A DNA stretch of 64,000 bases from contig RSEE01000036.1 in the NCBI GenBank assembly GCA_003971905.1, forward strand, positions 310,001 to 374,000, read 5' to 3'. Source of the stretch: Moniliella sp. 'wahieum'. Its lineage: Eukaryota. The notes beneath the pieces are model-generated. The model saw only the letters and a program-made list of their open reading frames with translations, was not told the DNA's origin and ran no database searches. The position numbers and the translations under genes are program-made. Positions 1 through 64,000 of the stretch are shown here, piece by piece. How positions within the stretch are numbered: the first letter of the stretch is position 1; every line of letters starts with the position of its first letter.

Positions 1-452
1 TTTCCTCTCCTCTTTTGATATCTGCCATAGCAGGAAGCCATACTAGTAGGAAGCCACAGCGAGCAAATGGTACATCGAGTCATTGCAGACAATATCATCT
101 CACAGTCGTATTCTTTTTGATCGGTTCCTGTCCGCTAGGGGTTCACAGGCGACACGCTGTGGCCTTGTTGCAGGGTGAGAACTACCGAAGGCTATGGACG
201 AGAAGGACAGACAGCGCATTGGTCAGGGCAGCAAACACAATTGTGTGATCCCATGTGATCTGTGATCCGGGGAGGACTTGCAGCACTTGAAGCATAACCG
301 GTAACCACTACTTACGCCACCTAGCCGTGGGTACTATTTCATAGTTACAAAAACTCTCAAAATAGCGCATGGTTCTGACGCAGACGCCTGCCGCCACCGC
401 CACACCGCCACCGCCTCCCCGATCACCCGCTCGCCCTCCCCGAGCCACAAGG

Positions 453-720
453 CTCCTCCCCACTCAACGGAAGATAGCATCGCGTAATGAAGTGGAGCCC
501 ATCGAGGGGATAGTCGAGCACGTTTTATATTACTGCACCGACTGTGCCAGGGGAGGAGCACCTGGAGCTACTTAGCAATAAATTCAACCGCTATGCTCGA
601 TTTCCCCAACGCTTTCAACACTGTGCGCCGTCGCACACTCGCAAACGCGCCCTACTGTTATGCCCCCCTCTCCTCTCTTCGAGCACCTCGTGACGGCGTA
701 CCTGGACGCAATTTACCATG
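453..720 (+). mobile_element. Degenerate non-LTR retrotransposon reverse transcriptase relic, CRE/Cnl1-like, internally deleted
   Basis: Colinear RT-like motifs across frames: LLPTQ (453-467), VEPI (492-503), LDFPNAFNTVRR (596-631) and LVTAYLDAIY (688-717, YLDD-like). The order matches CRE-clade RT (LLPxQ..GGVEPI..LDxxNAFN..AYLDD). The GVRQG region between NAFN and YLDD is missing. Confidence 0.65.
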
Positions 721-1985
721 TACTCGGTACAATCACTTTCAGTAGCTACAAAATGTTGCAGTGGTTTCTATTGTCATCAATGCTTCGTTGGGCCTGCGCT
801 TCTGTACGCAGCCGATGTGTCGCACATGTCAGTGGAACGTGGACGATCAAACATGATTAACATGATTTCCGCGCCTCTGCGTCGATGCGATGACGCTCGA
901 TGACGCTGGGAGGATCATTGATCGATATTCGCCGTCGGGCGCTCATGCATCATGCGCTATGACGCTCACCTGATGATCCGGATGGGCAATCTGATCAGGA
1001 GAACGGGTAAGGTCAGTGATCTAGGTGAGCGACTTTCCCCGCTTTCGTAGACCAGGATCCCAGCCAACCCATTGCGCCCGTCCACCCAACTCCGATGCCC
1101 ACGCGCCCATGCGCCCACGCGCCCAGCGCCCACCCCTCCGCCCAGCGGGGTTGGCTGTCCAGGAACAGAAACTTGCCTTGTGCCCAGGGGCAGCAGGGGG
1201 CAGCCGCCTTATTCGCCGTGTGCTTGGCGCGGGGCATTAGGTGGCAAACAGTGGCTAGTGGCAAGCGCCAGCCAGGGACCAGCACGCAAGGCGCTGCAAT
1301 GGACACAGGCCCGGAGCCAGTCCCAATCGATGATCCGTCAGCGCGTCAGCTTAGGTGACCGGTGACGGTGAGCGAGTGATCGTCGGCTGGGCACCTACTG
1401 AGTACCGAGTCTCAGTTTTGAGTTGGGTTCAGAGGGTGCTGCAGCACGGCTGCAGGCACCCGCGGCCCTCGAGGCGACCCACTCCCAGCGACTGCAGTGA
1501 CTAGTGACTAGTGCTAGTGACTGACTAGTGGAGTGGCGCATGCTGGGGACGAGGGATTAGGACGTTGCCCGGCATGCCCGGCAGCAAGCAGGCGTTGGCC
1601 CGCGTCGGCAGCGTTGGCGCTGCTGCAGTAGCCGTCTGATGCATGGATGCATCGCAGGCGGCTGAGAAGCTACTCAGTACTGCATGCTCAGCCGCTCAGA
1701 CTCAGTCCGCAGTCTCCCAGTCGCCCAGCCGCTCAGCGCAGACGCTGCTATAAGGCTCAAGCGCCCAACGCCGCGCGCCCCAGTGCCATGCGGCGCCCTG
1801 CCGCGCCCATGCGCGTCCTGCGGCATCTCGAGGCTCGAGGATCGGTGTGTGTTCGGTGTGATATACCCGGTACTGAGTACCTGAGACGAGAATCAGACTG
1901 GCCATACGCAGTACAGCACCACGCCGCTCCCATCATCCGCATCGGCTCTGCAGCAACCTACTACGCCACGCGGCCAGTACCTCTG

Positions 1986-1993
1986 TATAAATA
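1986..1993 (+). promoter_or_regulatory. TATA box upstream of the GH5 gene
   Basis: TATAAATA about 170 bp upstream of the ATG at 2155, followed by a CT-rich tract. Confidence 0.5.
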
Positions 1994-2154
1994 CCACTCT
2001 GCCTTGCTGCGTCGCGCACAGCGGCTACACCCAGGCATACGCGCGGGCTCCCCCTCTCGCTTCTCTGCCCGTCTCTGTCTCCCACTTCTTTGCCACCGCA
2101 GCCCTCAACCCCTCAAACCCCTAATCCATCCTATTCAGCCGCCCGACCGCCGTC

Positions 2155-4033: not shown

Positions 4034-5450
4034 CCGTTCTTTACTTTTTTTCTTGTGCTTTCTCACCAGCTTTCACTTTGATGTCCCTGCCTCTCATCTG
4101 TTTTTTGTGTTATTGCGGACGGGCTCCAAGCCTATCCGCTTTTCCCTTTTGCCTGCCAGTTACCCTAAATGCCTTGTAATGATTTTGTTAAAAAGTGTAG
4201 AGTAGCGGAGTCTATCAGGCAAACCAAAGGGAGTGGGTGTGGTAAATAATAGCATTGTATACCGCGAGGGGTCGTCCTACTTATACGCAAAGTAGGGAAA
4301 AGAAAGATAAAGATAACTCGAGCAAAGAACCTTGTAGCTCAGACCACCAAGTCGGTTAGCCCACAAAGCAGGACAAACCAAACCAGTGCCGAACCAAACT
4401 GTTGAGTCTCAAATCCAGATGATGTGGTCCGACACTCAACAAAAGTATGACCGGATCAATTCACGATGGAGTCAAACAAACCCATTTTGTCGTCGGAAGG
4501 TCTTATAGCCAATGCCGATAGTCGATAGAGTAGGGGAACCAATACAGTAGAGGGAGAATTGGAAGCGAGAGTGCATTAGTTGCAATTGCCTAGGAAAGCT
4601 CGCGCTTTTCTCGAGTGTCAAGTAAAACTCATCATTGCGCGAGCCCGGCGGTATGGTTCTAGCCGACGGCCCAATCGACAGGTTGAGTGACTAATATAAG
4701 TATGCAAGTGACTCTCGGCTGTTCCTCTCGTCCAACATGGACAATCGCCCGTTAATGAAGGCATGCCGCCTACGCCCGTTTTACCTGGTCTCATCATGAT
4801 GGGAACGCGCCTGTGCCACACTTCAATGTAGGGGAATTATTGCACCACTGTGAACTGTGAAGCTTGAAGCTTGAATCTCCAAGCCGTAACTAATTTGCTC
4901 CCCTTATTGTATCCCTACTGTATTACTGTACAGGCATCTGTATGGGCGAGCGCCATTCACTTGGACGTACAGTACTCCAGCTGGTATAGTACAGCAGAGG
5001 GAGGGTGGAGGGACGGGGGCCAAGTCGTGTGAAGTTCCAAGGGGGAAAGTAAGAGGGATGTCAGACGGAAACAGAGTTCAGAGGCAAAGCAAGCAGGACG
5101 AGGCAAATGCCGACCCCGCCACGAGGCCAGGCCCTGGTCTCGCTCTCAATCCAACGCAGCTCAGGGATATCTGCGCACGAGGGCGGAACAGGGAAACAGC
5201 GGCGCTGGCCAGCAGTGTTGAGGGGCAAAAAAACGACAAGAATGATATGAGATGAGGGAGAAGGCAGGTCAGGGGTACAGGGGTACAGGGGGTAGAGCAG
5301 TCAAGGTCGAAGGCGAGCATGCGATGTGGGAAGAGGACATCGGACGGACTGTCGAGCCAGGATAGCTGGACGATGGCGTGGCGCGGCCGAGATGAACAGA
5401 TGGAGCAATGCGGAGAACAAGGAGGCATGCACGGGATAAGAGGAGGGTAG

Positions 5451-9684: not shown

Positions 9685-10549
9685 TGGGGGGGGGAGGTGG
9701 TGGAGGTGGTGGGGATGGAGAACGGAGGATGGTGCAGGGGGAAGGGATGAGTCGATGAGGCGTTTGTTGGCAGCCGAGAGGCCGAGGCGACACGCGAGCC
9801 GACGCTCCCAGTTCAGCCGGCGACGCCTTCCGGCAGACAGCGCAGGCCGCCCCCAGCCACACCCTGGCCAGACTCGGGGAGAGATTGGCTGTGTTGGGAC
9901 GAGACAGCCGGATGATATGATCTCGATGATCGAGATGATCGATGAAGACGAAGCTTGAAGCGGGCAGCCGCACTTCGGCTATACTTATTCATCTGCCTCA
10001 GGGGGAGGCATTGGCTGCGGGCACGGGCCAGTATATGGCGGCTCCGACAGAAGTGGCTGCGAGCGCTCAGCGCCCACTATCAATATATCAATGTCCGTAC
10101 TCAGTATCATCTCTCGGCGGGTTGCCGTCCGCCTCCAACCTCCACCTTCAAGCTCCCAGATTCATCGCACATTGCATCATCCATCCATCCGAACCCGCCG
10201 GCTAAACAGAACGCGGCGACGAGCGATCGCACGATTCCATAACCTTGGATTCCAGCAACCCACTGGCGGTACCCACCCTCTCATCCCTCTGGGCCCAAGC
10301 AGGCCTAGGCCGGTGGCGGTATGGGGGAAACGCATCAGCCGATGACACTGGGATGGAACTGTGGGGTTGGTGGCGCACAGGAACGGCCAGGCGGGGCACG
10401 GACGCAGCAGGACGCAGCCTGGAGGGGGACAGTCACGTGTTCGGTGCAACTGTCCGTTGCAATTTCACTTTGCTTGCGGCGTCCGCCGGGGCGCTTGTCC
10501 AGGCAGAAGCTCCCACGGCAGAAGCTTCTGCCTGGGCCAAGGCTGGAGG

Positions 10550-14227: not shown

Positions 14228-14259
<32 letters not shown>

Positions 14260-19448: not shown

Positions 19449-19872
19449 ACGTAAATGATTAATGATTAATGACGTTAATGACGGCAGGTGGGGCTACGGG
19501 CCAGGGCGCACAGGGGCAGTGTGCCATGCGCCCCCTGCGTGATTGCGATTCCGCCACAAGGACAGCCCACTCTGCTTTTCGCAGCTCCACGCCCCAGACG
19601 ACCGCAGCGCCAGCTCCCAGTGCCCAGCCCCCAGCCTCTGGGGTCTCCCAACTCTCACATCTCAGAGACGGCAGCCGCCAACCCGCCCCTTTCCAGGCGG
19701 TATCCATTCCCTTTTTTACTGCCCCACAATCAAACCACCTCATACAGCAGCAGCCAATGGGGTCTGGCGTTACGCGTTGCGCGTTATTATTACCGCGTTT
19801 TAATAGCGTAAACGTTGAACGTTGAACGTATCCTCACCGATGGAGGTACACTCAAGGGATTGTCGAATAAGT

Positions 19873-20152
19873 TGTTGAGAGGTATCGTGAGTGACGCCGG
19901 TGATGGCTCGTGTGTTTTAATAGCCAAGGTCCCTTCAGTCCTTCCTCAGGCCTAGCAATCCTGTTGTTTTCTCTCGCTTTTGTTTTTTTGTTCCCCCCCT
20001 ATAGCCCCCAGCGGCGACTGGCTGCTTGATATTCCTCTGTGATCTGTAGGCGTTTCTGGGTGGCTTAGACCACCACCACTATATAGTGCGATTGCATCAC
20101 CGTCTCAAAGGGCCATCATGCATCACGACTCCAGATCTCATCTCGATCATCA
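19873..20152 (+). mobile_element. Solo LTR copy A (old, diverged)
   Basis: TGTTGAG..ATCATCA ends; flanks TAAGT/GAAGT (4/5 TSD match); aligns to copies B and C along its length. Strand is relative only. Confidence 0.7.
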
Positions 20153-20612: not shown

Positions 20613-20846
20613 TGTTGAGCCATCGGGTGGATCGTGCTTTGGCCAATGCCCCTTCAGTTCCTCCTCATGCCTGGGAGTTCTGTTTTCTCTCTGTTTTTCC
20701 TTGTTCAGCAGCTTATAGCCCCTGGTGGCGACTCGCTGCTTGATGCATGATGTTCCTCTGTAGGCGTTGCTGGTTGGCTTAGACCACCACCACCACCAGT
20801 GCAATCGCATCACCCTCGAGGACCATCTGGACTCCAGGTCTCATCA
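20613..20846 (+). mobile_element. Solo LTR copy B (234 bp)
   Basis: TG..CA ends (TGTTGAG..CTCATCA, imperfect terminal inverted repeat); perfect 5-bp TSD TTCTT at 20608-20612 and 20847-20851. Confidence 0.85.
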
Positions 20847-21607
20847 TTCTTTGCTGTCCCTCTTCACGTTTCATGCATGTCCATCAGCTCCCGCGTCCAA
20901 AGACGTCAAAGTTGGACGTGTTCATCGTTCAACACGTTCAACCAACATTCAGCGCCAGCGCGTTTCGAGTTCAGTACTCGGTGCATGTTTTGACGTTAAT
21001 TGGCGAGCCGTCGGCGCCTGAACGTTGAACGTCCTGAGAGCGTCTGTCTGTACCTGAGGCAGGCTCAGAAGGACTCAGATCGTTCGGAGAGATCCGAGAT
21101 CTAACCGGTGACCACGATGGTCTTTGATTAAGTTCTTTGATTAAGTTGATCGGTGACCGGTGACCACACAAGTCACCCGATCCCGTATGTAAGCCGAAAC
21201 ACGTGCCGGCACAGACATGGCTTTTCGGTCACCGGTCCCAGTCACGCGTCACATGTCACATGTCATGCATGTCACATGTCAAGTGGCGAGCTTCAAGCTG
21301 CCAAACAGTTGTAGTAGTAAAGCTACTCAGTACTCACACGTCAAGCTCAAGCGTCAAGCTGCATGCTTCTAGAGCTTTTAAAGCATTACAAAGGCCCATT
21401 CGGTCTCGTGTGTTCATCGACATCGTCCATCTCAGATCTCATCCATCCCATCGATATCAATCTCAGATCTCACTCGCATCACGCATCATGCGTCATGCGC
21501 GTCATACATCAAACGTTATGCAATGTGTGTTGGGCCATCGATTCGATCAGAAGAGAATCCCTCTTCCCCTCCACCATGGCGTAATAGCCTTGCACATTCT
21601 CGATTCT

Positions 21608-21626
21608 TGACATGTGACATGTGACA
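21608..21626. repeat. 5+2 heptamer array TGACA-TG-TGACA-TG-TGACA
   Basis: Read directly from sequence. Confidence 0.95.
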
Positions 21627-21652: not shown

Positions 21653-21884
21653 TGATGAGACCTGGAGTCCAGATGGTCTCGAGGGTGATGCAATCGCACC
21701 AGTGGTGGTGGTGGTGGTCTAAACCAACCAGCAACGCCTACTGAGGAACATCAAGCAGCGAGTCGCCACCAGGGGCTAAGCTGCGGAACAAGGAAAAACA
21801 GGAGAGAGAAAAAACAACGGAACTCCTAGGCCTGAGGAGGAACTGAAGGGACATTGGCCAAAGCACGAGCCACCTGGCTCAACA
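21653..21884 (-). mobile_element. Solo LTR copy C (232 bp), inverted relative to A and B
   Basis: Plus strand reads TGATGAG..CTCAACA; perfect 5-bp TSD CGATG at 21648-21652 and 21885-21889; its reverse complement aligns closely with copy B. Confidence 0.85.
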
Positions 21885-22024: not shown

Positions 22025-22043
22025 TGACGCGTGACGCGTGACG
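22025..22043. repeat. 5+2 heptamer array TGACG-CG-TGACG-CG-TGACG
   Basis: Read directly from sequence. Confidence 0.95.
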
Positions 22044-23057
22044 CAAGACAATGATCGAATGATCCGAGATGACCACAGAGAAGGGTCAAAAAGCCATCGT
22101 GAGCTCTGTTCATGACCTAAGCAAAAATATTGATTTTTTATACCCGCCCGTGTTGCCTTCGACGAGAAACATTTTGTTTTGCTCTCCTATACGGGTACCC
22201 AATACCCTTTGTCTATTATATGGGTAAATGTAGGTCTGGCGAGAGATAGGATGTGTGTGTTTCTCGTCAAACTCTTTCAAAGGGAGCGAAGCTGCCCTCC
22301 GAAAGGCATCTCAGCGTGATCGTCATCTTGAAAATTAGATCCATTTTGTGACAGTTGAGGCTCAGAAAGTGGAGAGAAAACGAGTCGAGTCAAGGACGGG
22401 AAGCGGTACAACCGCTCCTCTATATATGGTGAGGAGTCGGGCGGAAGCAGAGAGGACATGGAGCCAAGCAGAGTATGTCAAGAAAATTGCGAGGTGGGGG
22501 CGAGGCAGAGAATCGAAATGGAAGTGGGATCAGTGCCGCTCAGCCACGCGCATCTCTCCTATCTCCTATGATGGTCGAGGACCGGTAACCGTCCCCAGGC
22601 AAGCTTTCAACACAAAATGCGGGAGAGGAAAGTATACTGTAGTACTAGACGCGGGGTTGTAAATGATTCCGTAGAAAAGGATAGCTCTTTTCCTTGAGAG
22701 AGGACGAGAAACACGATCGCTAACGCTTATAAGGGATGCATCAACGACGGACACAGAACAGAATAGGCGATGAAAGAGAACAGGGGCGGGGTGGGCAGTA
22801 TAGGAAAAGATACAGCGTGATGGTGGAATAGACAAAGATACAAATCTGGGGGAAGGAGCCATCACGTCTGGAACCTCGCCGATGACCGTCAGTTATACTA
22901 TGGCGGAGGGACAAGAGACTCGAGGACAAAGTATGTAGAAATAATGTGCAACGCGGGCAGTCATGTATGGCCACTGATAAAAGGGCCAGGGATCATGGGG
23001 GAGGGCGACTGAGACCTGAGGGCCAGTGAGAATAGTGGAGACGATTGCCCGCAACCG

Positions 23058-24485
23058 TCAGGAGCAAAAAGGGAGGGCCTCCTCAGAGTCAAAGGGCTGC
23101 GTCCGGTCCCCTCCTTCGTAATCAATATCCGACCAATACACTGGCTCGCCCGCTAAGATGATGCGTGCGCCATGATGGAATTGCTTGAGTAGCCAGATGT
23201 AGTGGTGGCGCAGAACTCGGTTGACCATCCAGAGTCGTTGCTGCAGAGAGTCTGAAGTGATTTCCGGCTGAATCTGCCAGCATGGTGCTGGAAGGGAAAT
23301 GAATCCGTCCTCAGACGGTTCCACGCTGGCTCCTTCGGAGCACAACGATGAAGCAGGTAAGGATTGGAGCTTCGAAGTCAGGTCCGCTTGTTCTTGCAGT
23401 AACATTTTGAGGCGGACTGGCACTTCCATCGCATTTACACCTCGGTCGCCGGGCACATAGCGTCTTGGGTGGATGCGAATTTCCGAGGAATGGAAAACGA
23501 TTCGGTGTCTGTAATGATGCGCAAGATGAGTGTGAGAAGACGGGGGAGAGGGAGGAAGAAGAAGTCGCGTACCCATTCGTACCCTGAGTGTGCTTGGCAA
23601 TGTTGTTATTGCATTTGGGACAAGGCAAGATGACGTTGTACCCTACCACCATTCCCGCAGCCATTGCATCCGAGCGTTTGGGTGAGGCAACGACACGACC
23701 GCTCCTGAGGCACTCCGCAATGCAACGTGGATTGACCTAGTGGGTTCGGGGGCATAAACCGCACTGCAATTGTTGGGTATTGCGTCCGTACTGTAAAGTG
23801 TAACATGGGGTTTGAGCAACAGCACTGCCTTCATTCCTCGGTCAGTGAAAAAACTGTCACACTGGATGCAGCGAACAATGTAGACGTTTTGACGCTGATT
23901 GGCCTTGTCCTGTCGACTCAGCAGGCGTCGGTGTGGGTAGGGTGGGAAAGGAAAGGAGTCAGCAAGTTGAAACATGGAGGATTCAGGGTGCATCGAGGCG
24001 GGAGCATGGTCGGAGGCCGATAATGTGGACAGACTTGATGGGGTAGGCGAGTAGACGGGTGCGGACAGGGGAGGCAAAGACTGAGTGTGGTCGAAGTTGC
24101 CAGGGTGGAGCCGAGTGGAGACGGCGTGAGCCGAGGGGGTCCATGGGGGCTGCTCTGAGGCGGAAGCATCAGATACGTTTGACCTTGTTAGGAGTGCGGG
24201 CGGGTGGATGAGGGGAACCTCGACATGGGTGGGCGCCTCCTCGCACCCAGGGCCAAGGGGCGTAGGGGGCACAGCGGATGAGAAAGGCATGGGTGCTTGT
24301 GGGTGCTGGGAGGAGGTGGGGGTGGTGGAGAAGGATGAGAGCACTCGGTTTTGTGGTGGGCAGGTGCAGGGTAAGGAATCAGAGAATGGTCGTCTTTTAA
24401 AGCAAAGCCGAGAGTTTGCTGCTTTCACCTCGATCGCAGTGGCCTTATCAATCTCAGATCTCACCTCGCGCGGCATGGCAGCCAT
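23058..24485 (-). CDS. FAM72-family protein
   Basis: VYIVRCIQCDSFFTDRGMKAVLLLKPHVTLYSTDAIP (FAM72 hallmark RGMKAVLL..STD), CRCLTQTLGCNGCGN..VGYNVILPCPKC and NGHRIVFHSSEI after removing intron 23509-23572. Start and stop approximate. Confidence 0.85.
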
Positions 24486-24817
24486 GGGTATTCTGCATCG
24501 ACGATGATCGATCGGGGGTCAAGCTGTCAAGCTCAAGCTTCAAGCTCCAATAGGACATCAGCGCGTTAAGCCTCAGTACTCAGTAGCGTTCACAGCCCAA
24601 GCATCCCGCCCGCGCCTCGGCCAAGACGACGGGCTTGTTCAGCGCTCAGCCTACGAACAACATCAACAGTATCCGCCGCATCTCCACCTCGCCCCTGAAC
24701 AAATCGAGCAGCAGTACCCACATGCCCAACGGCTGCGTCATGCCGTGACGCGTGACGTTGGGGGGTGCAGGCAGGTGCAGGCTGGGGCAGGGCCTGTCGC
24801 AGACGCACATGGCCGTG

Positions 24818-24843
24818 TCACATGTCACATGTCACATGTCATA
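24818..24843. repeat. 5+2 heptamer array (TCACA-TG)x3-TCATA
   Basis: Read directly from sequence. Confidence 0.95.
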
Positions 24844-26963
24844 GCGATGCGTGATGACTGATCGATGATCGATGATCGGCATGATATCATGCATCGATTG
24901 CCGGATCCAATGGGGTGGTACCCACCGAATCGGCAACGGCGCGCTGCCCTCGATCCAATTCACCCACCGTGTTCGCCACGCAGGGTGTCATGCCTCCCAC
25001 AAGTTCGGACTCCGACATGCTCCCGTCAGAGGCAGGCACCAGCACAAAACCTGGCATCCGAGTGTGAGATCTCAGAATCTGGGGATCTGGGATCTGGGAT
25101 CTGAGAACCTAGAGGCTCGGCTCAGCACTCAGTGTATGCCCACACCTCCTCTACTCTGTGGTGCCAGGACTACCGATGGCCGGTTACCTGTTACCGATTA
25201 CCGGTTACCTACCTTTTGCCTCTTCCGTACAACGTTGGCCGGTGTCATCATGAGACGCGTCTTCACCGAGACGCGAACGTGATAACATAATGGAACTCTT
25301 CATAAGATGAAGCATCGCAACTACAAGCAGACACACAATATAGTTCGGCTGCAACGGAAGTGAGGATTTTGAGGCCTTGATGCATACAGGGATTTGTGTG
25401 GGTATTATGTATTGCAATATGTGGCTCCCAGCTTTTTTGTGATATATCTCAACGAGGGCTTCTTTGGGAGGTCTTTGGGGGGGGGGGTATAATCGTTCTT
25501 TTGGCAAACCAAACAAATGTGTTTAGTTTTCCTTTATTGGCGCGTTATTGGACTGCCCTCCGCCAATCCAGCTTATTGCCACCTTTTCGGCCGTTGCCAT
25601 GCCAATCATAAATGTTCCTAAGCACACATATATATTGTAAGCGCGCCGACTGTATATAAAAAAGTACCGCCCGGCTCACGCGCTCATCGCAGTTATCCTT
25701 CGCACTCTCGCAGCGTCACGCCCGCGTCGCTCCTCCTCTCACGGAGAGCGATGTCACCGGTCACCCTTCGGCCTCTCCTGAGGCCCCAGCCTGAGGCCTA
25801 AGGCGCATGCCTGACAGACGCACGTGTCCGCACCACACACGCCAGATCGTCATAGCATCACAACACCACACCTTTCACACTTCCAAAAAGAGCTGCTATC
25901 TTATACTAAGATGAGAGGAAGTGCTATCGGATGATATTCTTAGTGCCTTCGCAGCCTTCGCTTGCTTCTGTTGGAGGGAGTGATGGGGTTCCCCTACACG
26001 GCCCTCAGTAGATCGGTAGTGACGCTCGTATATACTAAGATGCATCACGCACTCTGGTTGCCTATATATACCACAGAACACAAAAGTGTCTCCGACGCAC
26101 AGAAAACTGTGTGTGGTACCTTATTTATTCACTACGGGCGAAAGGTAAGACGGTGCGCACCGTACTCCTACATCGGACCAGATGACATCCACTGAGATCG
26201 ATCTCTGAATCTCCACCAAATCCATCAAACTTTTGATCCCTGTACGGTGGTCTAATAGTATCACAGAATCGATAATCATAAGCATAATGAAGATTCATAT
26301 GCATAATGAAGATGAGGTTCATTGACAGAAAAAAAGTCCTCTCTTCTCCTGTCACCGAATGACCACCTCTAACAGGACCTTGGTCTCCCTCGTTTAGCCC
26401 CGACTGTTAATCCATCCACTGTGTCGTGGATATTCTTTTCCCTTTGCTTTCTATTCTCTTCTTCGCAATCATCAGTTTTCGCCGCGTGGTATCCACTATT
26501 TTGATTTTTTAACTCATTTTCATCACGCATCCACCACACACACTACAGTTTCTGTCTCGGCCCCTAGGGTACTTTTTTGAGAGTGGGCATAAACTGTGTC
26601 TCCTCTGTGTACAATGAGTGCCAGCAAGTATCTCTCGGTCTTCAGCTTACTATTTGGTTAAATGCACCACATTCTTAGGGCTACAGGTTCTAGGGGCGTG
26701 AAAGAAAAAAAAGAGAATGAGTGCGAGTGGCTTTTTGGTGGGTAACTGTATAGTTGACGTTTTGTCTCGTATATGTACTAGAAATGTGAAAACAATATAT
26801 ATCCACCTCCCCATACGAAAACTATACAAGAAGTTTGTATATTTCCACCGCTCTATAACCCACCACAGCTAGATGCGTCTCCACCATCCAAAGCGCAGTC
26901 CTAGCCCCTCCTGACCGGCCCCACTGGCCCCTGGGTGTTGCTGTAACCAAATAAAAGGCTTTT

Positions 26964-26981
26964 TCAGATCTCAGATCTCAG
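26964..26981. repeat. 5+2 heptamer array TCAGA-TC-TCAGA-TC-TCAG
   Basis: Read directly from sequence. Confidence 0.95.
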
Positions 26982-28168
26982 CGCCAACCTTCTGGCCCAG
27001 GCACTGTGTATATACCCCTCTCAGATCTCATCCACAGCTTATCGATCACCCACCTTGTTTTAATAACACTTGCTTCTCGAACAAGGGACGAGAGTTGGAT
27101 ACGCGAACTGGTGGACACCAGTACTGTAGTTATAATCCCCTCCTTAAAGGTCTTAGGTTGTAGGCATTCTGTGCCTCCAGCGAAAACATGTTGGCTAGCT
27201 ATATCGGAACTACCGGCTACCGGCAATCATTAATCATTCATTAGTCATGCATCTTGCAACTTTGAGATAATCACGCACGTGGCCAAGACAGGGTTAAAAG
27301 TAGCACGTGACACTTGACAAACTTCCGACTAAGCCGTCATATGCGGCAAATCTCAGACGCTTTTCCGTGTTCGTGCGAGGCAGGCCTTAGGGAGGGGTGG
27401 AGTCCAGAAGATCCTAACAATATGTTCCGCATTCGCGTAAGTGTTTTACGAGGAAGGGGACTATTGGACGATTTTCTTACGCCGGGGGGCGCTGCTTTTT
27501 TGCCGTCTCTCAACATCACAATCAAGTGTAGGAAATGGATTTAACCTGTCTAAGGAAATTTTGTTGGACGAAGGAGCCAGAGTATAATAGCCGGAGCATA
27601 TATCCTGGGAGTATAGTATAGCGAACGGTGGATTATATCGATATACCCGATGAACGGTGGAGACGATGGCGGAAAGATGGACGTGGACAGTCGCCATCCT
27701 CACGGGACAGGCTGGGCGAAGCCCCATACATACAAGGCCGACGGACGGTAATCCAGAATCGCTTACCACGGTACACAAACCTGCTGAGAGCCAGTAGATC
27801 AGGGGTCCTGCCAAGCTCTTGTCACTAATATACACTAATCCAGGAAGGCTCTCGTGAAAGTGCTGTGCAGCAATCACCTATATTATCATATACATGAAAG
27901 TAGACTCAGGTCTCTACGTAAATGTGGCACGTGTGTGCACGGGAGAGAGAATGGTCGACACAGTAGACATTTGACGGCACAATCAACAATCAACATCATC
28001 GAGGATAACAGGCGAGAAGGGTCGACAATTGGGTGAAAATGACACAAAAAAGTATAATATAAGAACAAGAAGCTGCTCTACTCGGAGGAGAGAAATCGAA
28101 CAATCCACCGACCCCTGGTAGTAATAAGAAGGGGGAGCCCTGTCGGCGTCCGTCCTCACAGTACAGGC

Positions 28169-31100: not shown

Positions 31101-32221
31101 AGGCATTACTGACCTCGTCCATTGAGAAAGAGGAAGTACAGTCGAGCCGCTTGGACTACGCAAGCGGTCAAAAAGTTTAGAACTCGGCCCCCACTTCTTC
31201 CAAAAACGAATCTGAGATGAAGACGACGGACTCCATATCGGCGTACGGTACCCGTCAACAGGTGCATGCATCCAGTCACTTCGGGGGAAAGGTGGTAGCC
31301 TCGCATCCGCCCCCACCGCAGCGGGGCGCACACCCAACCAGTTGCGTGGACTAGACGAAGAGGGCTCACAGGACGGAATGGTAGCAGCAGCCGAACCATG
31401 CTGCATTCCCATCACCGGAGGTGCTGGTGGCACGGTCCAGTCCTGAGCCGGACGGAGGGAAGAAGCGCTTGCATCCCTGGATGGAGGCATGGCCCGCACA
31501 TCCGTAGGGGTCCAACCAAACACAGGGCTAAACAGCCTAGAGTAGTACCGTCGTTGTCTGAAAGATGCAAGACGAGGTCAGAGACAAGAGATGGTGGGGA
31601 GGGGTATAAGCTGGACATACCGGGAAAGAAAGAGAACCTTGATCAATAGGGATAGCGCCCAGGGGTGCCTGGGCGCGTGTATCTGGCTGTGAGAGGTCTT
31701 ATCCGGCGTCTTCTTGGCTGGTGTTCGTGATCAGCCACAGCAGCACCGAACAGGCTAAAATAGTAAAGGTGCTCTAGGACCTCCAGCAGGTGTTCCCTTC
31801 GTTACACGCCTGTTTGCGGAGAACAACGAGAATGTGGAGTAGGAAGGCGAGGGGGGTCCAGAACAGGAGCGAGAGGAGGCTGTCCAGCCAGCCGACAGGG
31901 AACCAGAGGTGGTAGAGGATGAAGCGCAGCACAAAGCACCCTAAGGTGCATGCGATTCCGAGGAAAACAGGCGGGAGCACGCGAGAGAGGGTGTCGGCAG
32001 TGCGTGAGCGGCGATGAGGGGCCCACGCTGTACCGGATGGGGGCGCAAGCATCAAGGAAAGCGACGGCGGATACGAAGAGGATGAGGTGACGGAGGCGAA
32101 TAGAAGAGGAGGAGGTGGCAGAGGCGAAGAGGAGGGGGCGGTGGCGGATGCTAAGAGGAGGAGGTGGCGGTGATGAAGAGGGAGGTGGTGGTGGGGAGGA
32201 GGGCGGGATGAGGGCGAGCAC
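28169..32221 (-). CDS. Large hypothetical protein: hydrophobic N-terminal segments followed by a Pro/Ser/Glu-rich repetitive region
   Basis: Chain of overlapping minus-strand ORFs. Canonical intron 31558-31620 (GTATGT..CTGAC..CAG). In-frame peptide repeats (PEHxVxxENxFVPEPV; PRxLDSSVF; AVATE). No recognised domain; could be two genes. Confidence 0.45.
29810..30060 (-). repeat. Coding tandem repeat, about 65-80 bp units, 3-4 copies
   Basis: Recurrent CCGGAAC..GTTCTC..GGCCACA..TGTGCTCCGG..CTCCGATGA on the plus strand, encoding PEHxVxxENxFVPEP. Confidence 0.75.
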
Positions 32222-37447: not shown

Positions 37448-39483
37448 ATACGTTAGCTGTTTGGCTACTTTTCTGACGGCATATACCGTCACCATGAACG
37501 TCTTCCTATGACGGAGCTTTTCTGTTTCGGGGATTGCTACCAATGACGGAAGAGACATTCCTGCTCGAATTGAGGCAGCAGTGGCTACTGCGGAGGGGGT
37601 AGGAGAAGGACTCTTCCTTGCTGTTGGGGTCGCACGGAGTACGGGTGGGGAAGGGGCTCCACGCAACTCCCATCGAGGAACGTGGACAAGCGAGGAAGAC
37701 TGCACCGCTTCCTTTCGGTTCGTCTGCTGAGGGGAAAGTCCGGTGGTGCCCTTCAGGGAGAGTGTCGTTGCTCGCTGGCAGCGAATGAGATGCGTATCGG
37801 ATGGGGCGAATCGGCAGGGAAAGTTGGGTCGTCTCAGTCATCTGCATATCGGAATATCATGGGTCCGTCAACAGTCTGCTTACTCAGTCAGGGGAGGATA
37901 TATGCTTTTGATGCAAGGCATCTGCTTTTGTCTTGGCCGCCTTGGTGCAGGCGGGGTCGCCCTGTGATTGCCCAGGGAGATGAAGTGGCGCCCCATTCGG
38001 ACACAGACTTGCGGTGGCGTTGTGCGTGTCTTCCCCTGGAGGGTACTCGATGGGAGCCTGGGAAGTGGGCGGGTCGTTTGGGTAGGGGTAGCAGCCCAAT
38101 GGGTGATGGAGGAGTGTAGAGGGAAACTCAGTCCGCAATAAGGCGCATTCTCGTCTTCGTCCGTCAGAGGAGGGCGGCGTAGGCGGGTCAAATTCGACTT
38201 GGCGTTCAGGGGCATGCATTAGCGCTGAATAAGCTTAAGGAACAGCCGTGAGCTTCCAGCAGTGTGTTGGGAACCGGAGGGGGAAGGTTATATAGGGGAA
38301 GGGCCTCATGCTGTCCCCTTTGCCTATAAGGGGGGAGTGGGAAGTTTATAGTCCACTACGCTCCGTGCACCAGCCCAAGTGTGAAAACCTAGTACGGGAG
38401 AAGAGTCGATGTTTGACCTCTTAAGGGATTTTTGACAAGTGGTGTGCTATGGTCGTGGAAAGGGAGTGTTTGGAGTGCTTAATAGTGCAGCAGTCTCACC
38501 CTCTTCGCTGGGAGAACGACGGAGGGGGGTATAGGGAATTGGGAGGGCACCCCTGTGGACACACGCACATAGTGTGCAGAACAACACTCCGGTCAGTGCA
38601 TCGCTCAGCGGTGAGGCTCACCCCCAGGAACACATGAAAGTCAAAAGATGCAAGTTAAATGAGTTGGGCTGTTGCAGGGCTACCGGGTACCGGGCTTCCT
38701 CGTTCCGGCCAGTTTTCCAATTTGCCTATCCCCGGTACCAGCGGCGAGGAAGACACCTTTTTTTCGATGGCAACACCATATGCCAGACCAACACCATCCC
38801 GTTTCATGCATGTGCGGCCTCTTTTCAGAAGGAACCTGCTCGCCTTTGCACCGACTGGAGCTAGGGCCTTGCTCTGAGTGGGCGCGAGCTCGCTGTCCGT
38901 GTCACACATCCGTAACGCGTAATGATTCGATGCATCATCCCATCCGAGTCTGAGGGGCTGAGGCGTGAGGCGCTGACTGAACTCAGCGCCCTCCGGCCTC
39001 TCGGGGGGCTGAGGTTAAGAGGTGATGTCGATGACCGGTGACCGGCCTGACCACACGTGGGCTGTGTGGCCTGGGGGCGGGGTGGCTGGTGCTGCAGCGG
39101 CAACTGGGTGTGCGGACTCAGTACAAACATATAACAGGGAGTGACTATAGTGACTAGCTTGAGTGACGGGGTTGTGTGGGCTGGGGTGGGCGGTGTTGGC
39201 GATGCGCCAGGGCGTCATCCCCGTCATTCCAGCAGCGTGAACTTTATAACGGCTGAACTTTCAACGTTTCAACGCTCCTTTGCAATGTTCATCGATCATC
39301 GTTCCTCCTTCCCCTCCCCCCGGTTCGGGGGTGATCGAATCCGGATCACATGTCACATGTCACACCGGCGCCATGTGGGTGCAGTGTATGACGCCCAATC
39401 GGGGGGGTGGTATAGGAGGCGCACAGCCTCTTTTCTTCGCTTCTCGCCACCACTGTCCTGCTCACCGCCATCGGCTCCGCACC

Positions 39484-41738: not shown

Positions 41739-42497
41739 ATGCCAAATTCAGCTTCAAGCATCAAGCAGCAAGCTCCGCCTTGCCCCCATTTGTGCTGTTA
41801 GCCAACCCTGTCAGCTCGGCTGATTCTATTTTCCTACCATCGCCATCCACACCTTGGTCTCTCGTCTACTTCTCTCTGGGCCGTATTCCGAATACTCTTC
41901 ACTGGGCCGTGCTTCCCTTTCATGTCATGTCTTAAGCCGTATGTTATCTGGCTACTCATCCAGCGGGTGGGAGTTCCTCCTGTGCTCCACAATCAATATA
42001 TGATGGATGGCGCTGGGTGCCTGCCCGCCCCTGGTTTGGGCTTCTTATTTCTCTGGAAGGAACACAACGGATAGACTCAGCTCGTATCTTCGCCTGGGAC
42101 GCCTTGGAAGTTGGCCAGCTTGACTGGACGCTTCATTCACGTTGTGCACTAACAGAGGACAGACAGAAACAGAGGCGCTCCTGAGAGATGATATCAACGC
42201 AAGATGAGGAGTCCCCTTCCGGTGGCACTAAAAATACCGCACTTGCGCCCAACCTCCAGTGGTCTTGAAACGTTAAATCGGGGGCGCCATGCTGTGCAAC
42301 GTGGAAGCCCCTCGCCTCGCGCAAGAGTAGCCCTGTGCGCGCATTGGGCGGCTGCCAGCACACGGCCAGTGGTAGCCTTCCCGCCCCGCTTACGTGATTC
42401 CTGATTGGCCAAGCATCCAGCTGCCTCGGCCACTTTCACTCGGCTCCACCGCTCCACTTGGGCTTGCGCTGTTCCACCACCTCTGGCTCTATCCTCC

Positions 42498-44362: not shown

Positions 44363-44521
44363 GGCGTGGCGCAATACGAATTGCAAAGAAGCAACAGATG
44401 GTGGCGGGTGACGTGGGCCAGCCGGTGTAGAATTGCAGCTGGTAAAGTACGCGAGCTTACCTAATTGCTATGCGAAACATGCTTCAGCCTTCAGAGAGCT
44501 TAAAACTTGGGGCTTCAAGCT

Positions 44522-56129: not shown

Positions 56130-56778
56130 GCGCGTGTATGCGAGGAGGAGGAGGAGAGGAGGAGGAGGCGGAAGAGGCAAAGAAGAGAGGAGGGGCGGTG
56201 ATTAGTACGTGACGTTGGGGCTTGGTTTGCCCAATCGCTTTCAAACGCCGAGGTTTGGGGCGAAGCTGGTGGCTGCGCCGAGTGGGTGTGGCAGCGTAGG
56301 AGAGTCTGCGCCCGCACTCGACTAGGAAGAGGGTGGCTGAGGCAGTGAGGGCGCCCAAACGCGCTGTCCTCGGCGTGTACAAAGCCAGCGCGATGCTGTT
56401 TGTGCCTGGCGGCTGGCACCAGACAGAGCACTGGAGGCTATCATATATCAGCTCCCCTCGGCACCCGCCATGGCCATGCAGTTGATATGCTTTGACACCT
56501 GAGATCGGAGGCGACGGATGAGATCGATGAGTGGAGGAGTCCAGTAATAGAGTAGTGCGTACGACCCCTGAGCGCTGAGCTGACCACCCTGAGACCCTGG
56601 CTGGACCCTGGTAATCTCTTCGGCTTGAGTCAAGGCTCTGCTCGTTTACTGCTGGTACGCATGGGACGAACGCCACGCTCACTAGCTTCTACCCACCCTC
56701 TCACTCGAACCCATACGAAATACTTTTCACAGGCAGATAGATACTGGCCCTTGTTCGCGCCCTCCACTAATCTTATCC

Positions 56779-57878: not shown

Positions 57879-57985
57879 GGGCAATGGCCTGGATGTGGAC
57901 TGGACAGCAAGATACTGATTGAGCCGAGGGGGCGTGAGCGGATGTTGCAATTGTGTTGGGCACGTGACGGCAGCGACGGGCGAGG

Positions 57986-58011
57986 TGACCGGTGACCGGT
58001 GACCGGTGACC
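57986..58011. repeat. 5+2 heptamer array (TGACC-GG)x3-TGACC
   Basis: Read directly from sequence; lies about 110 bp upstream of the MEU1 ATG. Confidence 0.95.
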
Positions 58012-60167: not shown

Positions 60168-60364
60168 TGTTTTTGAGCCACAGAAGGGTGACTAGGGTGT
60201 TTGGTTAAGTCCCTCAGTCTCTCTCCAGGCTTAAGACGGTACAGCCTAGCTCCTGGTGTAACCCGTCTGTAGGTGTTGCTGCTTGGCTTAGATCCCCACC
60301 ACTGCTAGGGCGATTGCATCACCCTGGATGGCCATCAGATCTCAGAGGACTCCAGGTCGCATCA
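60168..60364 (+). mobile_element. Solo LTR copy D (old, internally deleted)
   Basis: TGTTTTTGAGCCA..GGACTCCAGGTCGCATCA aligns with copy B (CTGTAGG-GTTGCTG-TTGGCTTAGA..GCGATTGCATCACCCT); flanks ATTGT/ATTGC (4/5 TSD match). Confidence 0.7.
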
Positions 60365-62033: not shown

Positions 62034-63054
62034 ATGCGTCCTTTCCGCCTCTCGTCCTCATTTTACTCGTTGTGGCCGCAACCGCTCTGGCCAAGAGCCA
62101 ACAGGTTACTTCAATCCAGCACTAGAGAGGCAATAACATGGCTCACTGTGCGTTTTTTTCCCCTTGCTTTCGTCTGGCTTGTATGCGGACGCCATTTTAT
62201 TATGAACAGCGTGTCCGAAGCATACGGACCGCGAGAATGACTTTTACTAACCTTGTTCTCTCTCTTCAGTTCCTTGGAGCCTCGTTCTCCTCGGCGAGCC
62301 TCTCAACGTCATCATTTTCCGGCGATTCCAGCCCCGCTCCTGAATGTGACGGGGCTAATGCGATGGGCTGAGGACATGGGCTATGGACGTGAAGTACGTT
62401 GACTCTCCCCCTCTTACCATGCATACCTGCATGAGCCGTATATTGATGCGCTCTTCCTCTCTTCTAGTGCTTTGGGTTACATGAGGGTATCAAGCAGCAA
62501 GCCAACTGGGTGACGGGCGTGGATGGCAAGCTCAGGAGCTCGAACTTCGATGGTTGTATGGCAACTCCCGTATTGGGCGCTTGCGACGAAACGTTCCGGG
62601 GCGGAAGCCACTTTCGTGCCTTTCAACAAGCAGGGACCAACGCCTGGTTCCTGTCTGTCTCCAATGAGATGAACATCTTTGCTCACCATCGTATCACGGT
62701 ACGTTATCCTCTTTGAAAGAGAGTGTGGAGTTGCAGACACTGATTCTATGTCTGCTTTCGCGATTGTGTGTGATGTTTTACTTGTTAACACAGGCGGACG
62801 GGTATATGCGTAAGTCGTCTCCTCGCATCTCCATTTGGCCTTCAAAGAACCCTTCATAATGCTGACCCATTTTTCGCCCAGTGGCCGCGACAAACTTGTG
62901 GGCGAAGCCCAGCGACACCGGAAGTATAATGGGGGGAATACAACACGACCGTTCAGTACATCTCGGGCTGGCTCCCAACCGGTTCCGATAACATCCACCA
63001 TGATGTGTCAATTGTGGACGAACTGCGGTCTTGACCATCAAGGAACTCGTATAG
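62034..63054 (+). CDS. Small secreted fungal protein of unknown function; four introns and a micro-exon
   Basis: Signal peptide LVLILLVVAATALAK, then GEPLNVII, CFGLHEG..QQAN, GACDETFRGGSHFRAFQQ, AWFLSVSNE, GRDKLVG. Introns 62148-62269, 62394-62467, 62699-62793 and 62810-62881. I recall these motifs from a conserved basidiomycete hypothetical family. Confidence 0.75.
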
Positions 63055-63592
63055 CACCTCTTCAAGACATACCCCTCGTCCAGCCGTGCCTCGTCTGTTG
63101 GGGCGATGCCCCAATCACGCCATCCTGCGTGATAGTCATCACCCCTCTTATCCGCCGATATCCCGGGAAGCTTCCTCAGCTCCGCGGTACCCTCGTCTAT
63201 ATAAGGCCCTACCCTTCTCATAGCCTCCTGTACCTCTCCTCAGAACCACATCCTCCATTCCACTCCTCCTTCAGCATCGTCGACTCAATTTCACCGCCGT
63301 CCACTGACTGCCACCGGCGGACTTTCATTGGCAGAACCACGGCCTGCTAATACTGTTTTTCGTCTCTGCTCATCATCTTTTGCTGCCTACCGTTTTCCTC
63401 TCCCGGGATGTGGACTATGCTACAACCACCACCAAGCACCCTGTTAATACTCAACTGTCACACCTTCATTCATCGTTTCACCCCTATCCGTCCCTCAATA
63501 ACATGTAACACCCTCACATCTGCTCAGCCGATCTTGTTTCTTATTGCCCCACCGTTACATCTGGCGTAGCACTCGGTGGCTATAGGTGAGGG

Positions 63593-63611
63593 TGAGGCCT
63601 GAGGCCTGAGG
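63593..63611. repeat. 5+2 heptamer array TGAGG-CC-TGAGG-CC-TGAGG
   Basis: Read directly from sequence. Confidence 0.95.
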
Positions 63612-64000
63612 ACGATCAGTGTCTGCTTGTCAAATGCGGCAAGGAAAAGGTCGACAAGTGGCATGTGATGCATGTGTGACATGTGATAAAGGACAGTATG
63701 TGACATTTGGGATACCAGGGTGAAAGGGTTCCAGCGTGGAACGGTGACTACGGTGGCGAAGGGGAACGGTGGCTAATAACGTGGGGACGCAGCTGCGTAC
63801 CGAGCCGGGGCGAAGCGCCAGCAGACCGGGCCGTAGACCCGGCGGTCTTCCTCGTCTGGGATATGGAACAACTAAAAGTTAAAAATGAGAAGATCAACTT
63901 CAGCGGGACAAACGGTGAAAATGGGGGACGGTAAGCTTTTGTCACATGTCATTGGAACCGGCGGGACGATAGAGTTTCATAACTATGACGTTGCTACACC

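Follow-up and report, generated by a model that had tools for sequence, protein, structure and literature searches.

A stretch of DNA from Moniliella sp. 'wahieum' (64,000 nucleotides, contig RSEE01000036.1, positions 310,001 to 374,000, GenBank assembly GCA_003971905.1; hereafter the window) carries many short arrays that share a period of 7 bp and differ in sequence, which raises the question of the process that writes them. In the original prediction, which was made from the letters alone, they were assigned to a single rule: a 5-mer TSAxy (S = C or G) is followed by the reverse complement of its last two bases and then by the same 5-mer, TSAxy-y'x'-TSAxy, referred to here as the 5+2 rule.

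The 5+2 rule and its geometry

Direct repeats of the form N5-dd-N5 were counted on the + strand of the window and compared with 100 dinucleotide-preserving shuffles of 1-kb blocks. Such repeats were found 410 times (79.9 expected), and those in which dd is the reverse complement of xy, the last two bases of N5, 56 times (4.7 expected). With the 5-mer restricted to TSAxy, the full pattern was present in 39 cases vs 0.13 expected, and the maximum in any shuffle was 2. The comparison with shuffled DNA had been put forward in the original prediction, and in the window it gave the excess. Among the 53 TSAxy-dd-TSAxy cases on this strand, dd was the reverse complement of xy in 39, where 1 in 16 is expected. 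After merging of both strands 49 distinct, independent arrays were obtained in the 64 kb, and the same flanks were never common to two arrays of one class. When periods 2-15 were scanned for exact runs in which 10 or more positions match, period 7 gave 17 and each other period 0-4. The unit had the form ANNNNT plus C or G in 25 of the 49 exact period-7 runs of at least 14 bp (a random 7-mer has it in about 1.4%). The 5+2 arrays are a real feature of this DNA. All 19 of the coordinate examples first reported read as given, apart from the end of the run placed at 24818-24843, which lies at 24841. Of the 16 possible hexamer palindromes 14 occur and not 13, ATATAT being present at 56439-56450; the reported absence of AAATTT and AATATT stands and is within sampling error. 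The usage of xy, with 14 of the 16 classes present, is roughly proportional to the frequency of TSAxy sites.

The geometry of the repeats is strict. Direct TSAxy repeats were found at gap 2 in 106 cases, 79 of them palindromic, and at gaps 0, 1 and 3-7 in 5-28 cases; only gap 2 is enriched, gaps 1 and 3-7 being without enrichment. Where two or three palindromic nucleotides had been proposed, the number is therefore exactly two. Spacings between TSA of the same S followed this pattern, with 119 cases at d=7 (37 expected) and 61 at d=14, and without enrichment at d=3 and d=11 in the window. An excess of these spacings was also seen at d=9. Of the 69 TSA-pal4-TSA 10-mers with the same S, which compare with 4 perfect palindromes, 62 were extended by xy or y'x' to the 12-mer. 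Run lengths peaked at 12-13 and 18-20; none fell in the range 21-25, and one run each measured 26 and 28. In a register-free 4+3 count an A followed the centre in 95 of 100 hits, a T preceded it in 85 of those 95, and the centre base among the 95 was G in 45, C in 41, T in 5 and A in 4. The core is T-[G/C]-A, and the class of S is preserved between repeats. The palindromic bases were always derived from the TSA-distal end of the 5-mer, the TS end being used in 0/14 non-canonical cases. Of the 69 TGA-oriented runs, 23 have the T as their first base and 16, in the mirror form, begin two bases before it; the statement that arrays begin and end on the 5-mer does not hold in every case.

As a control on natural sequence, 121 metagenome loci from many unrelated organisms, retrieved with one 19-base array as query, were searched. 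They contained 5 arrays in 524,427 bases, vs 49 in 64 kb, and no relative with a dense 5+2 grammar was found among these 121 loci (524 kb). By this comparison the 5+2 signature is specific to this lineage. Some of the metagenome matches differ in kind, among them a TGACA-based satellite and inverted array pairs. No description of the rule was found in the searched literature, where most subscription journals fall outside the coverage.

Seven-base-pair insertions in solo-LTR copies

The LTR copies of the window allow sites with and without an event to be compared (Table 1). Copy alignments gave four copy-specific insertions across the four copies, each of exactly 7 bp. An exact tandem copy accounted for 0/4 of these events, and 5-mer + two palindromic bases + 5-mer for 4/4. 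E2 is a 5+2 event at a non-TSA core. E3 and E4 sit on opposite sides of one homologous TCA, so that the forward and the mirror form occur at the same site; in c2 and c3 the E3 site reads CCATCTGGAC, with TCT instead of TCA, and no event is present there. Arrays originate as precise +7 insertions: their nature as insertions and their length, the core of the target and the rule for the palindromic bases are directly observed. The LTR events and the broad use of xy bear out the view that a mutational process is responsible rather than a single binding site or microsatellite. In their behaviour the two added bases resemble P nucleotides, in line with the hairpin origin that had been suggested for them. 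A link with the LTR integrase (5-bp target duplication, 2-nt processing) was rejected, since dd is target-dependent, with 14 xy classes, and the target duplications of the solo LTRs (TTCTT, CATCG) are not TSA sites.

Table 1. Arrays, LTR copies and copy-specific insertions in the window.
Feature	Position	Strand	Remarks
Array (GGTGACC)x4, 28 bp, the longest	57984..58011		in spacer of the divergent gene pair PNP-like/SDR
Array of 26 bp, TGACA-TG x3 + TGACA	24816..24841		unit as read on - strand; in dense cluster 24451-24878
Array (TGATCGA)x2.9	24859..24878		
Array TGACA-TG-TGACA-TG-TGACA, 19 bp	21608..21626		
Compound array	21248..21281		two TCACATG arrays joined by 9-bp step
Array (TGACGCG)x2.9	22025..22044		
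Array (AATGATT)x2.7	19454..19472		then exact 9-bp duplication 19466-19483
Array (AACGTTG)x2.7	19811..19829		
Array (TCAGATC)x2.6	26964..26981		
Array (TCACATG)x2.7	39346..39364		upstream of amino-acid transporter gene
Array (TGAGGCC)x2.7	63593..63611		
Array (TGAAGCT)x2.6	4858..4875		spacer between two convergent genes
Array (AGTGACT)x2.6	1496..1513		imperfect continuation to 1522
Solo-LTR copy c1	19923..20142	+	more diverged; carries E2 and E3
Solo-LTR copy c2	20613..20846	+	TG...CA ends; 5-bp target duplication TTCTT; before/after reference
Solo-LTR copy c3	21653..21884	-	TG...CA ends; 5-bp target duplication CATCG
Partial LTR copy c4	60266..60364	+	carries E4
E1, 7-bp insertion in c2, TGATG-CA-TGATG	20741..20752		alignment; single 5-mer in c1 and c3
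E2, 7-bp insertion in c1, TCTGT-GA-TCTGT	20036..20047		two copy alignments; - strand ACAGA-TC-ACAGA
E3, 7-bp insertion in c1, CATCA-TG-CATCA	20114..20125		mirror form, left side of a TCA
E4, insertion in c4, TCAGA-TC-TCAGA	60335..60346		forward form, right side of homologous TCA

Genomic setting of the arrays

The window is eukaryotic, with CSL, TCP-1 and Arf genes that are apparently intron-split (Pfam on ORFs), and the best named relatives of its SDR belong to the Ustilaginomycotina; the DNA is that of a smut-like fungus of Ustilaginomycotina type. Rfam and tRNA scans of the window returned nothing. A gene map based on codon bias assigns confident coding status to only about 20% of the window, and placements relative to promoters, 3' ends and introns are approximate. 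Its high-confidence coding segments, 19.9% of the window, contain 370 of the 1985 TSA sites. None of the 49 arrays lies within them, though about 6-9 would be expected, which agrees with the earlier claim that coding exons are free of arrays. In part this absence follows by definition from the TGA stops that the arrays have on one strand, and it is expected of an insertion that shifts the frame. The density amounts to about 1 intact event per 20 non-coding TSA sites, and a rough estimate would put the rate at about one event at each TSA site for every substitution per base. With orientations that are approximate, the arrays cluster in spacers beside gene 5' ends (24451-24878, 19454-19829, 38681-39364 and 57984-58011), the first of these being the dense cluster upstream of the gene at 23058-24518 (-); in three tandem-oriented spacers no array was found in the 1 kb adjoining the 3' end. 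Further arrays (4858, 50987, 53534) occupy spacers of convergent genes and, probably, an intron.

Candidate mechanisms

The explanation that we favour, with slightly less than even confidence, is that the arrays are excision footprints of a cut-and-paste transposon with a 7-bp target centred on TSA; the element, the hairpins and the end-joining steps are what we infer from the insertions described above. A cut-and-paste DNA transposon would insert by a 7-bp staggered cut centred on TSA (nnTSAnn). Its excision would leave both flanks as covalently closed hairpins, with the nick exactly at the junction of element and flank, as for Transib and RAG and unlike the 1-nt offset of hAT. Each hairpin would be opened two bases off the tip, one 4-nt palindromic overhang would be kept and the other removed, and the ends would be joined with a net gain of 7 bp. 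One target copy would remain intact and the first two bases of the other would be replaced by two P nucleotides, converting TSAxy to TSAxy-y'x'-TSAxy, or to the mirror image on the other side of the core. An already-hit site would be a perfect odd palindrome with two cohesive overhangs, so that repeated hits would add clean 7-bp units; ordinary slippage would add further units, and the two together would build the runs of 19, 26 and 28 bp.

A target duplication is left behind in 4/4 events with a known ancestor (5-mer doubled, net +7), and P bases complementary to the adjacent flank end are present at the junctions (39/53, + strand). Hairpin models were enumerated symbolically for target duplications of 2-9 bp, nick offsets of 0-2 and hairpin openings of 0-5. 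Only nick offset 0 reproduced the product, and the forward as well as the mirror form resulted only from a 7-bp duplication that has S at its centre and hairpins opened equally at the two flanks. The opening is taken to be +2 because the 4+3 or +3-opening variant fails at E2. An insertion process with palindromic bases, as originally envisaged, is retained in this model, whereas the accompanying 5-nt stagger is replaced by a symmetric 7-bp cut centred on TSA, which fits better. Other schemes were discarded: a hAT hairpin with 1-nt offset (l1 = x and r1 = y in 1/85, and no offset-1 model yields the product), a 3-bp duplication of the PIF/Harbinger or CACTA type (no solution in the enumeration) and a Tc1/mariner-type footprint made from transposon end bases (dd varies with the target, 14 xy classes being represented). 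Hairpins on the flanks are known for hAT, Transib, MULE and RAG (PMC5499845). DNA transposons with 7-bp duplications exist in Basidiomycota, namely hAT7 of rust fungi (Pucciniales) and Kyakuja of the Agaricomycotina, and agree with the model in duplication length and phylum; the passages compared give neither target consensus nor excision chemistry nor footprints for them, and contain no report from Ustilaginomycotina (PMC12730594).

On the other side, a search of the 64-kb window for elements that combine terminal inverted repeats with a 7-bp nnTNAnn, 5-bp TNAnn/nnTNA or 3-bp TNA duplication gave 0 hits, and Pfam detected no transposase or reverse transcriptase domain in its 141 ORFs of at least 130 aa and 89 intergenic ORFs. 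The expected minor products, with both overhangs kept (+11) or both removed (+3), are not enriched. Hairpin-type elements are usually reported with mixed footprints, and the footprint here is far more uniform; we know of no superfamily with the target consensus nnTSAnn. Exact duplications of 7 bp whose unit has TSA at its edge (21486-21499, 38959-38972, 33619-33635) count against the model because it cannot produce them, as does the very high event density, and the excess at d=9 is left unexplained by a transposon.

It is possible, rather than probable, that these observations reflect an undescribed lineage-specific insertion machine at T-[G/C]-A, either a TSA-centred RAG/Transib-like transposon family or a domesticated nuclease derived from one, which leaves a single, exact, palindromic 7-bp scar at a rate near that of substitution per base. 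In promoters of the lineage, small insertions and new tandem sequence would then arise predominantly through this machine. If the excision model is true, one enzyme activity would lie behind a large share of the small non-coding insertions in this fungus, short tandem near-palindromic sequence would continually be made beside genes, and a testable source of new promoter sequence would be at hand. The arrays would then be a genome-readable record of break and repair, from target choice through the position of hairpin opening to the end-joining outcome, by which the activity of a transposon perhaps rare or already lost could be detected and dated. So strict a rule lends itself to automatic counting in any genome, and a survey of its taxonomic spread could be rapid.

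The same +7 event could be made by a host enzyme that cuts TSA with a stagger, with no resident transposon, although we regard this as unlikely. Candidates would be a domesticated transposase or another site-specific nuclease, and the palindromic bases would come from hairpin formation and opening or from snap-back of a repair polymerase during fill-in. The failure to find a transposon or transposase in the window, the great uniformity of the product and the very high rate per TSA site speak for such an enzyme, as does the tendency of arrays towards the promoter side of spacers on the rough gene map, which would suit action on open chromatin. A target duplication combined with P nucleotides is, however, the classic signature of insertion followed by excision. 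To our knowledge no host nuclease has TSA specificity, and polymerase theta, the usual snap-back enzyme, is as far as we know missing from most fungi; both count against this alternative.

Ordinary heptanucleotide microsatellites, whose near-palindromic units would slip more through small hairpins and so be over-represented, and whose young or decayed two-copy arrays would be the 12-mers, are improbable as the origin. In their favour, arrays grow in 7-bp steps, non-palindromic exact period-7 duplications are about 2-3 times commoner than those of other periods, and at 33619-33635 a mutated unit is exactly propagated (TGACATC x2.4), for which the neighbouring unit must have been copied. This suggests that slippage copying may contribute to the later growth of arrays. 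Yet none of the four events with a known ancestor is an exact duplication of adjoining sequence, run lengths peak at 12 and 19 instead of 14 and 21, and slippage leaves both the T-S-A core and the retention of S (69 vs 4) unexplained. The predicted hairpins are weak (z-scores of -2.4 to 0 for single-strand folds of 5 arrays), and a structural role as the main reading was set aside on the same folds.

Slightly more doubtful still is that the arrays are selected regulatory elements, TGA/TCA half-sites at 7-bp spacing for an abundant DNA-binding protein or for promoter chromatin. The clustering beside gene 5' ends and the array-free 1 kb next to 3' ends in the three tandem-oriented spacers, both of approximate orientation, would fit this; a promoter preference is also typical of many cut-and-paste elements. 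Solo LTRs, for which a regulatory role is unlikely, nevertheless accumulate events; arrays are found too in spacers of convergent genes and, probably, an intron, and the usage of xy, with 14 of its 16 classes present, roughly follows site abundance. Selection also leaves the exact 5+2 origin unexplained. An array of binding sites for one factor was rejected, as only T-S-A is constant. An artefact of assembly, polishing or basecalling is scarcely credible, for it would neither avoid coding sequence, respect a T-S-A core with P-nucleotide logic, nor differ among paralogous copies at homologous sites.

The proposed excision footprint resembles those of Ac/Ds, other hAT elements, Transib and MULE in the retained target duplication, the short palindromic junction bases, the net gain of about the length of the duplication and the accumulation in non-coding DNA. 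It differs from them in having one dominant product, where theirs are usually heterogeneous, and in its 7-bp duplication, the canonical lengths being 8 bp for hAT (nTnnnnAn), 5 bp for Transib and 8-10 bp for MULE. The nick of hAT one base into the flank gives odd-centred complemented bases, which the arrays do not fit. Coding joints of V(D)J recombination by RAG share with the arrays an even-centred addition of about 2 palindromic bases and, as modelled here, a hairpin whose nick falls exactly at the junction and whose opening lies off the tip. Cleavage by RAG, an animal system related to Transib, leaves in itself no target duplication, unlike the events here; transposition by RAG and Transib gives 5-bp, GC-rich duplications. 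Short period-7 intergenic arrays are also known from bacteria, as the cyanobacterial STRR and the Xanthomonas GGGAATC repeats (PMC4692102). These are prokaryotic, with one or a few G-rich units per genome and often in inverted pairs, and unlike the arrays here are without a TSA core and the 5+2 rule. A repeat of this type was rejected, as the window is eukaryotic and holds many different units rather than one G-rich heptamer.

Period-7 arrays and their grammar

The original prediction described many arrays of the form TSAxy-y'x'-TSAxy (S is C or G; y'x' is the reverse complement of xy), in which a 5-mer alternates with two palindromic bases. This "5+2" pattern was examined in the 64-kb window, with 524 kb of unrelated metagenome DNA as a control and published papers as a third source. 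All 19 cited arrays are present in the sequence as given, except that the run said to end at 24843 stops at 24841. Among periods 2-15, period 7 is an outlier, with 17 exact runs of at least 10 matched positions versus 0-4 elsewhere. At 14 bp or longer there are 49 exact period-7 runs, and in 25 of them the unit joins a palindromic hexamer, ANNNNT, to one C or G, a form taken by 1.4% of random 7-mers. The proposed shuffle test was run on the forward strand. N5-dd-N5 repeats, where dd denotes the two gap bases, occurred 410 times versus 79.9 in shuffled sequence, and those with N5 = TSAxy and dd the reverse complement of xy 39 times versus 0.13 (maximum 2 in 100 shuffles); the palindromic rule is obeyed by 39 of the 53 TSAxy-dd-TSAxy repeats on this strand. 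Both strands together hold 49 distinct arrays. No flanking sequence was common to two arrays of one class, which indicates that the arrays are separate loci and do not belong to a dispersed repeat. The control (121 metagenome loci, 524,427 bases) contained five such 12-mers, the array used for fetching left out, a density about 80 times lower than in the window. The observation is confirmed and made more precise, with two corrections: 14 of the 16 possible junction palindromes occur instead of 13, ATATAT being present, and array ends do not always fall on the 5-mer.

When TSAxy direct repeats were summed over both strands, a gap of 2 alone was enriched (106 cases, 79 of them palindromic), versus 5-28 cases at gaps 0, 1 and 3-7. 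TSA triplets with the same S were found 7 bp apart in 119 cases (37 expected) and 14 bp apart in 61, without enrichment at 3 or 11. The basic unit is a 12-mer: 62 of 69 TSA-pal4-TSA 10-mers extend by xy on the right or by y'x' on the left. Its fully palindromic version, with a complementary centre base, occurs only four times. The length distribution of the runs has peaks at 12-13 and 18-20, plus one run each of 26 and 28 and none of 21-25; it follows 5+7k and not 7k. A count independent of register, which took any 4-mer followed by the reverse complement of its final three bases and then by the 4-mer once more, gave 100 matches. A followed the centre in 95 of them and T preceded it in 85 of those 95, the centre in the 95 being G in 45, C in 41, T in 5 and A in 4. 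This defines the core as T-[G/C]-A; T-[A/T]-A is rare, and a small number of other cores occur. It is always the core-distal end of the 5-mer that is mirrored in the two extra bases; the core-side end was used in none of 14 non-canonical TSA cases. Usage of xy is broad and roughly proportional to the abundance of each TSAxy site, and the array flanks carry no further consensus. The 5+2 rule was also seen at non-TSA cores, T-[A/T]-A included (Table), somewhat above the chance number.

Table. Positions in the window of the features discussed
Feature	Position	Strand	Remark
Solo-LTR copy c1	19923-20142	+	
Solo-LTR copy c2	20613-20846	+	
Solo-LTR copy c3	21653-21884	-	
Solo-LTR copy c4	60266-60364	+	partial
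Array with ATATAT	56439-56450		
Non-TSA core	25082-25103		TGGGA-TC x3
Non-TSA core	27210-27224		CTACC-GG
Non-TSA core	25198-25209		TTACC-GG
Non-TSA core	295-306		TAACC-GG
Non-TSA core	63499-63510		TAACA-TG
Exact 7-bp duplication	21475-21499		
Exact 7-bp duplication	33619-33635		mutated unit
Exact 7-bp duplication	38959-38972		
Exact 7-bp duplication	41754-41767		
Exact 7-bp duplication	4847-4861		
Exact 7-bp duplication	27979-27995		
9-bp spacing	21259-21274		
9-bp spacing	21490-21505		
9-bp spacing	19466-19483		
9-bp spacing	9925-9942		
Array cluster	19454-19829		near gene 5' end
Array cluster	24451-24878		near gene 5' end
Array cluster	38681-39364		near gene 5' end
Array cluster	57984-58011		near gene 5' end
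Array	4858		between convergent genes
Array	50987		between convergent genes
Array	53534		probably in PIP5K intron
AT-richer stretch	25300-26950		GC about 46%
Tandem repeat	29909-30058		75 bp, two copies, 80% matches
GAG/GGA-rich repeats	32063-32216		21-28 bp
Long ORF region	28411-32293	-	

Insertion events in solo-LTR copies and the surroundings of the arrays

A repeat of about 234 bp is present in four copies (c1-c4). It starts with TG, ends with CA and is flanked at two copies by 5-bp target duplications (TTCTT and CATCG), which identifies it as a solo LTR and shows that LTR retrotransposons have been active in this genome. Three of the copies lie within 2 kb of each other. Their alignment revealed four copy-specific insertions, each of exactly 7 bp. 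Copy c2 has TGATG-CA-TGATG where c1 and c3 have the single 5-mer, and c1 has TCTGT-GA-TCTGT. One homologous site was hit twice, giving CATCA-TG-CATCA in c1 and TCAGA-TC-TCAGA in c4, whereas c2 and c3, which have TCT in place of TCA, show no event there. At this TCA, c1 carries a mirror form (duplication left of the core) and c4 a forward form (duplication right of it). In no case does the insertion exactly repeat the adjoining sequence: all four consist of a duplicated 5-mer and two palindromic bases. The arrays are insertion scars. With the four events falling in some 800 aligned bases at 14-27% divergence, our own rough estimate of the rate is about one event for every TSA site per substitution per base, which is very high for one specific insertion.

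In line with the original prediction, none of the 49 arrays lies in the high-confidence coding segments, which account for 19.9% of the window length and contain 18.6% of the TSA sites. A TGA on one array strand excludes some frames by definition, yet about six arrays would still be expected there. Because a 7-bp insertion shifts the frame, this absence is expected and tells nothing of function. On a rough gene map (Pfam matches, long ORFs and a weak codon model) clusters occur near gene 5' ends, and no array was found in the kilobase adjoining 3' ends in three tandem-oriented spacers. Spacers between convergent genes contain arrays too, and one array probably lies in an intron of the PIP5K gene.

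The window is eukaryotic and fungal, as judged from its Pfam domains and the relatives of its short-chain dehydrogenase. CSL/LAG1 transcription factor, protein kinase, Arf GTPase and TCP-1 chaperonin matches each appear to be split by introns; PIP5K, nucleoside phosphorylase and the dehydrogenase were matched as well. The latter has relatives with 86% and 73% identity, and its best named relatives are from Ustilaginomycotina (Tilletiaria, Pseudozyma, Tilletia and Ceraceosorus; 50-56%). GC content ranges from 46 to 64% across 2-kb windows. The AT-richer stretch, inside a 3.9-kb spacer, has several TATA-like runs and neither arrays nor Pfam matches. Both repeat regions within the long ORF region are probably low-complexity coding sequence.

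Hairpin excision and a host enzyme as possible explanations

Where a duplicated target is joined through bases that are the reverse complement of the adjacent end, the pattern is characteristic of a staggered insertion and its later excision with hairpin-capped flanks. This process was enumerated symbolically for target duplications of 2-9 bp at any position, nick offsets of 0-2, hairpin openings of 0-5 per side and overhangs kept or trimmed. In the enumeration the nick would have to fall precisely at the boundary between element and flank; the 1-nt offset of hAT type fails, the required flank relation being present in 1 of 85 cases. One-sided solutions were obtained for 4- to 9-bp duplications, but only one solution yields forward and mirror forms from a single target when the chemistry is identical on its two sides. 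It would require a 7-bp duplication with S at its centre, hairpins opened to an equal extent, and one overhang kept while the other is removed. The opening would have to be +2 and not +3, since in the TCTGT-GA-TCTGT event of c1 (E2, core ACA) the second copy retains A and not the complement that +3 predicts. Such a process would account for the constant gain of 7 bp, the symmetry of the T-S-A core, the identical centre base across units, the palindromic bases from core-distal ends only, and the balance between forward and mirror forms (39 and 40). Clean array growth would also follow, because a hit site would be a perfect odd palindrome with two cohesive 4-nt overhangs. Slippage contributes to growth as well, as some mutated units were copied exactly (e.g. 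33619-33635). The enzymatic, hairpin-type process of the original prediction is in this way supported in part, its stagger of about 5 nt giving way to a 7-bp event that is symmetric about TSA. Filing the arrays as transposon-type excision scars is tentative, the probability falling slightly short of even, and as such scars they are unusual in their strict single product, target and density.

A serious rival is a host nuclease or polymerase that acts without a resident element. Neither a transposon with a matching duplication nor a transposase was found in the window, hairpin footprints are typically less uniform than this product, and there is no enrichment of the +3 and +11 by-products that would be expected. 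Besides, hairpin excision does not account for the exact 7-bp tandem duplications with TSA at the unit edge. Their units are non-palindromic, with TGA or TCA as the first or last three bases in 7 of about 12 runs; several still obey the palindromic rule at the first of their two spacer bases. A 9-bp spacing of same-S TGA/TCA is modestly enriched (58 versus 37 expected), and most of this excess is likewise left unexplained. Two such cases consist of the 5-mer, two palindromic bases of the left copy, two of the right copy and the 5-mer; others are exact 9-bp duplications. The lack of an element in the window, the uniform product and these duplications keep the host-enzyme explanation serious. 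A purely structural role is unlikely, because the arrays are predicted to fold only weakly as single strands.

Known systems and metagenome sequences

According to the available text of PMC5499845, flanking DNA is formed into hairpins by hAT, Transib, MULE and RAG, and footprints are a frequent result of end joining. The available text of PMC12730594 describes 7-bp duplications for hAT families of rust fungi (hAT7) and for Kyakuja elements of Agaricomycotina, which suggests that a 7-bp stagger is not foreign to Basidiomycota; that text gives no target consensus or footprints for either. The bacterial heptamer repeats, as far as PMC4692102 presents them in the text available, are different from the arrays of the window. 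In the full-text literature searched, a set with few of the subscription journals, no account of a 5+2 rule centred on TSA was found.

Among the metagenome loci fetched with one 19-base array, L003 contains a satellite of about 880 bp (920-1803) with constant TGACA and a variable dinucleotide (TG, GT or CA). In three others the TGACATG array forms an inverted pair (L009:8215-8370, L055:2530-2703 and L061:1131-1278), its members about 100-130 bp apart with AT-rich DNA between them and each ending in TTAAG. These pairs resemble the termini of a small inverted-repeat element of an unrelated organism.
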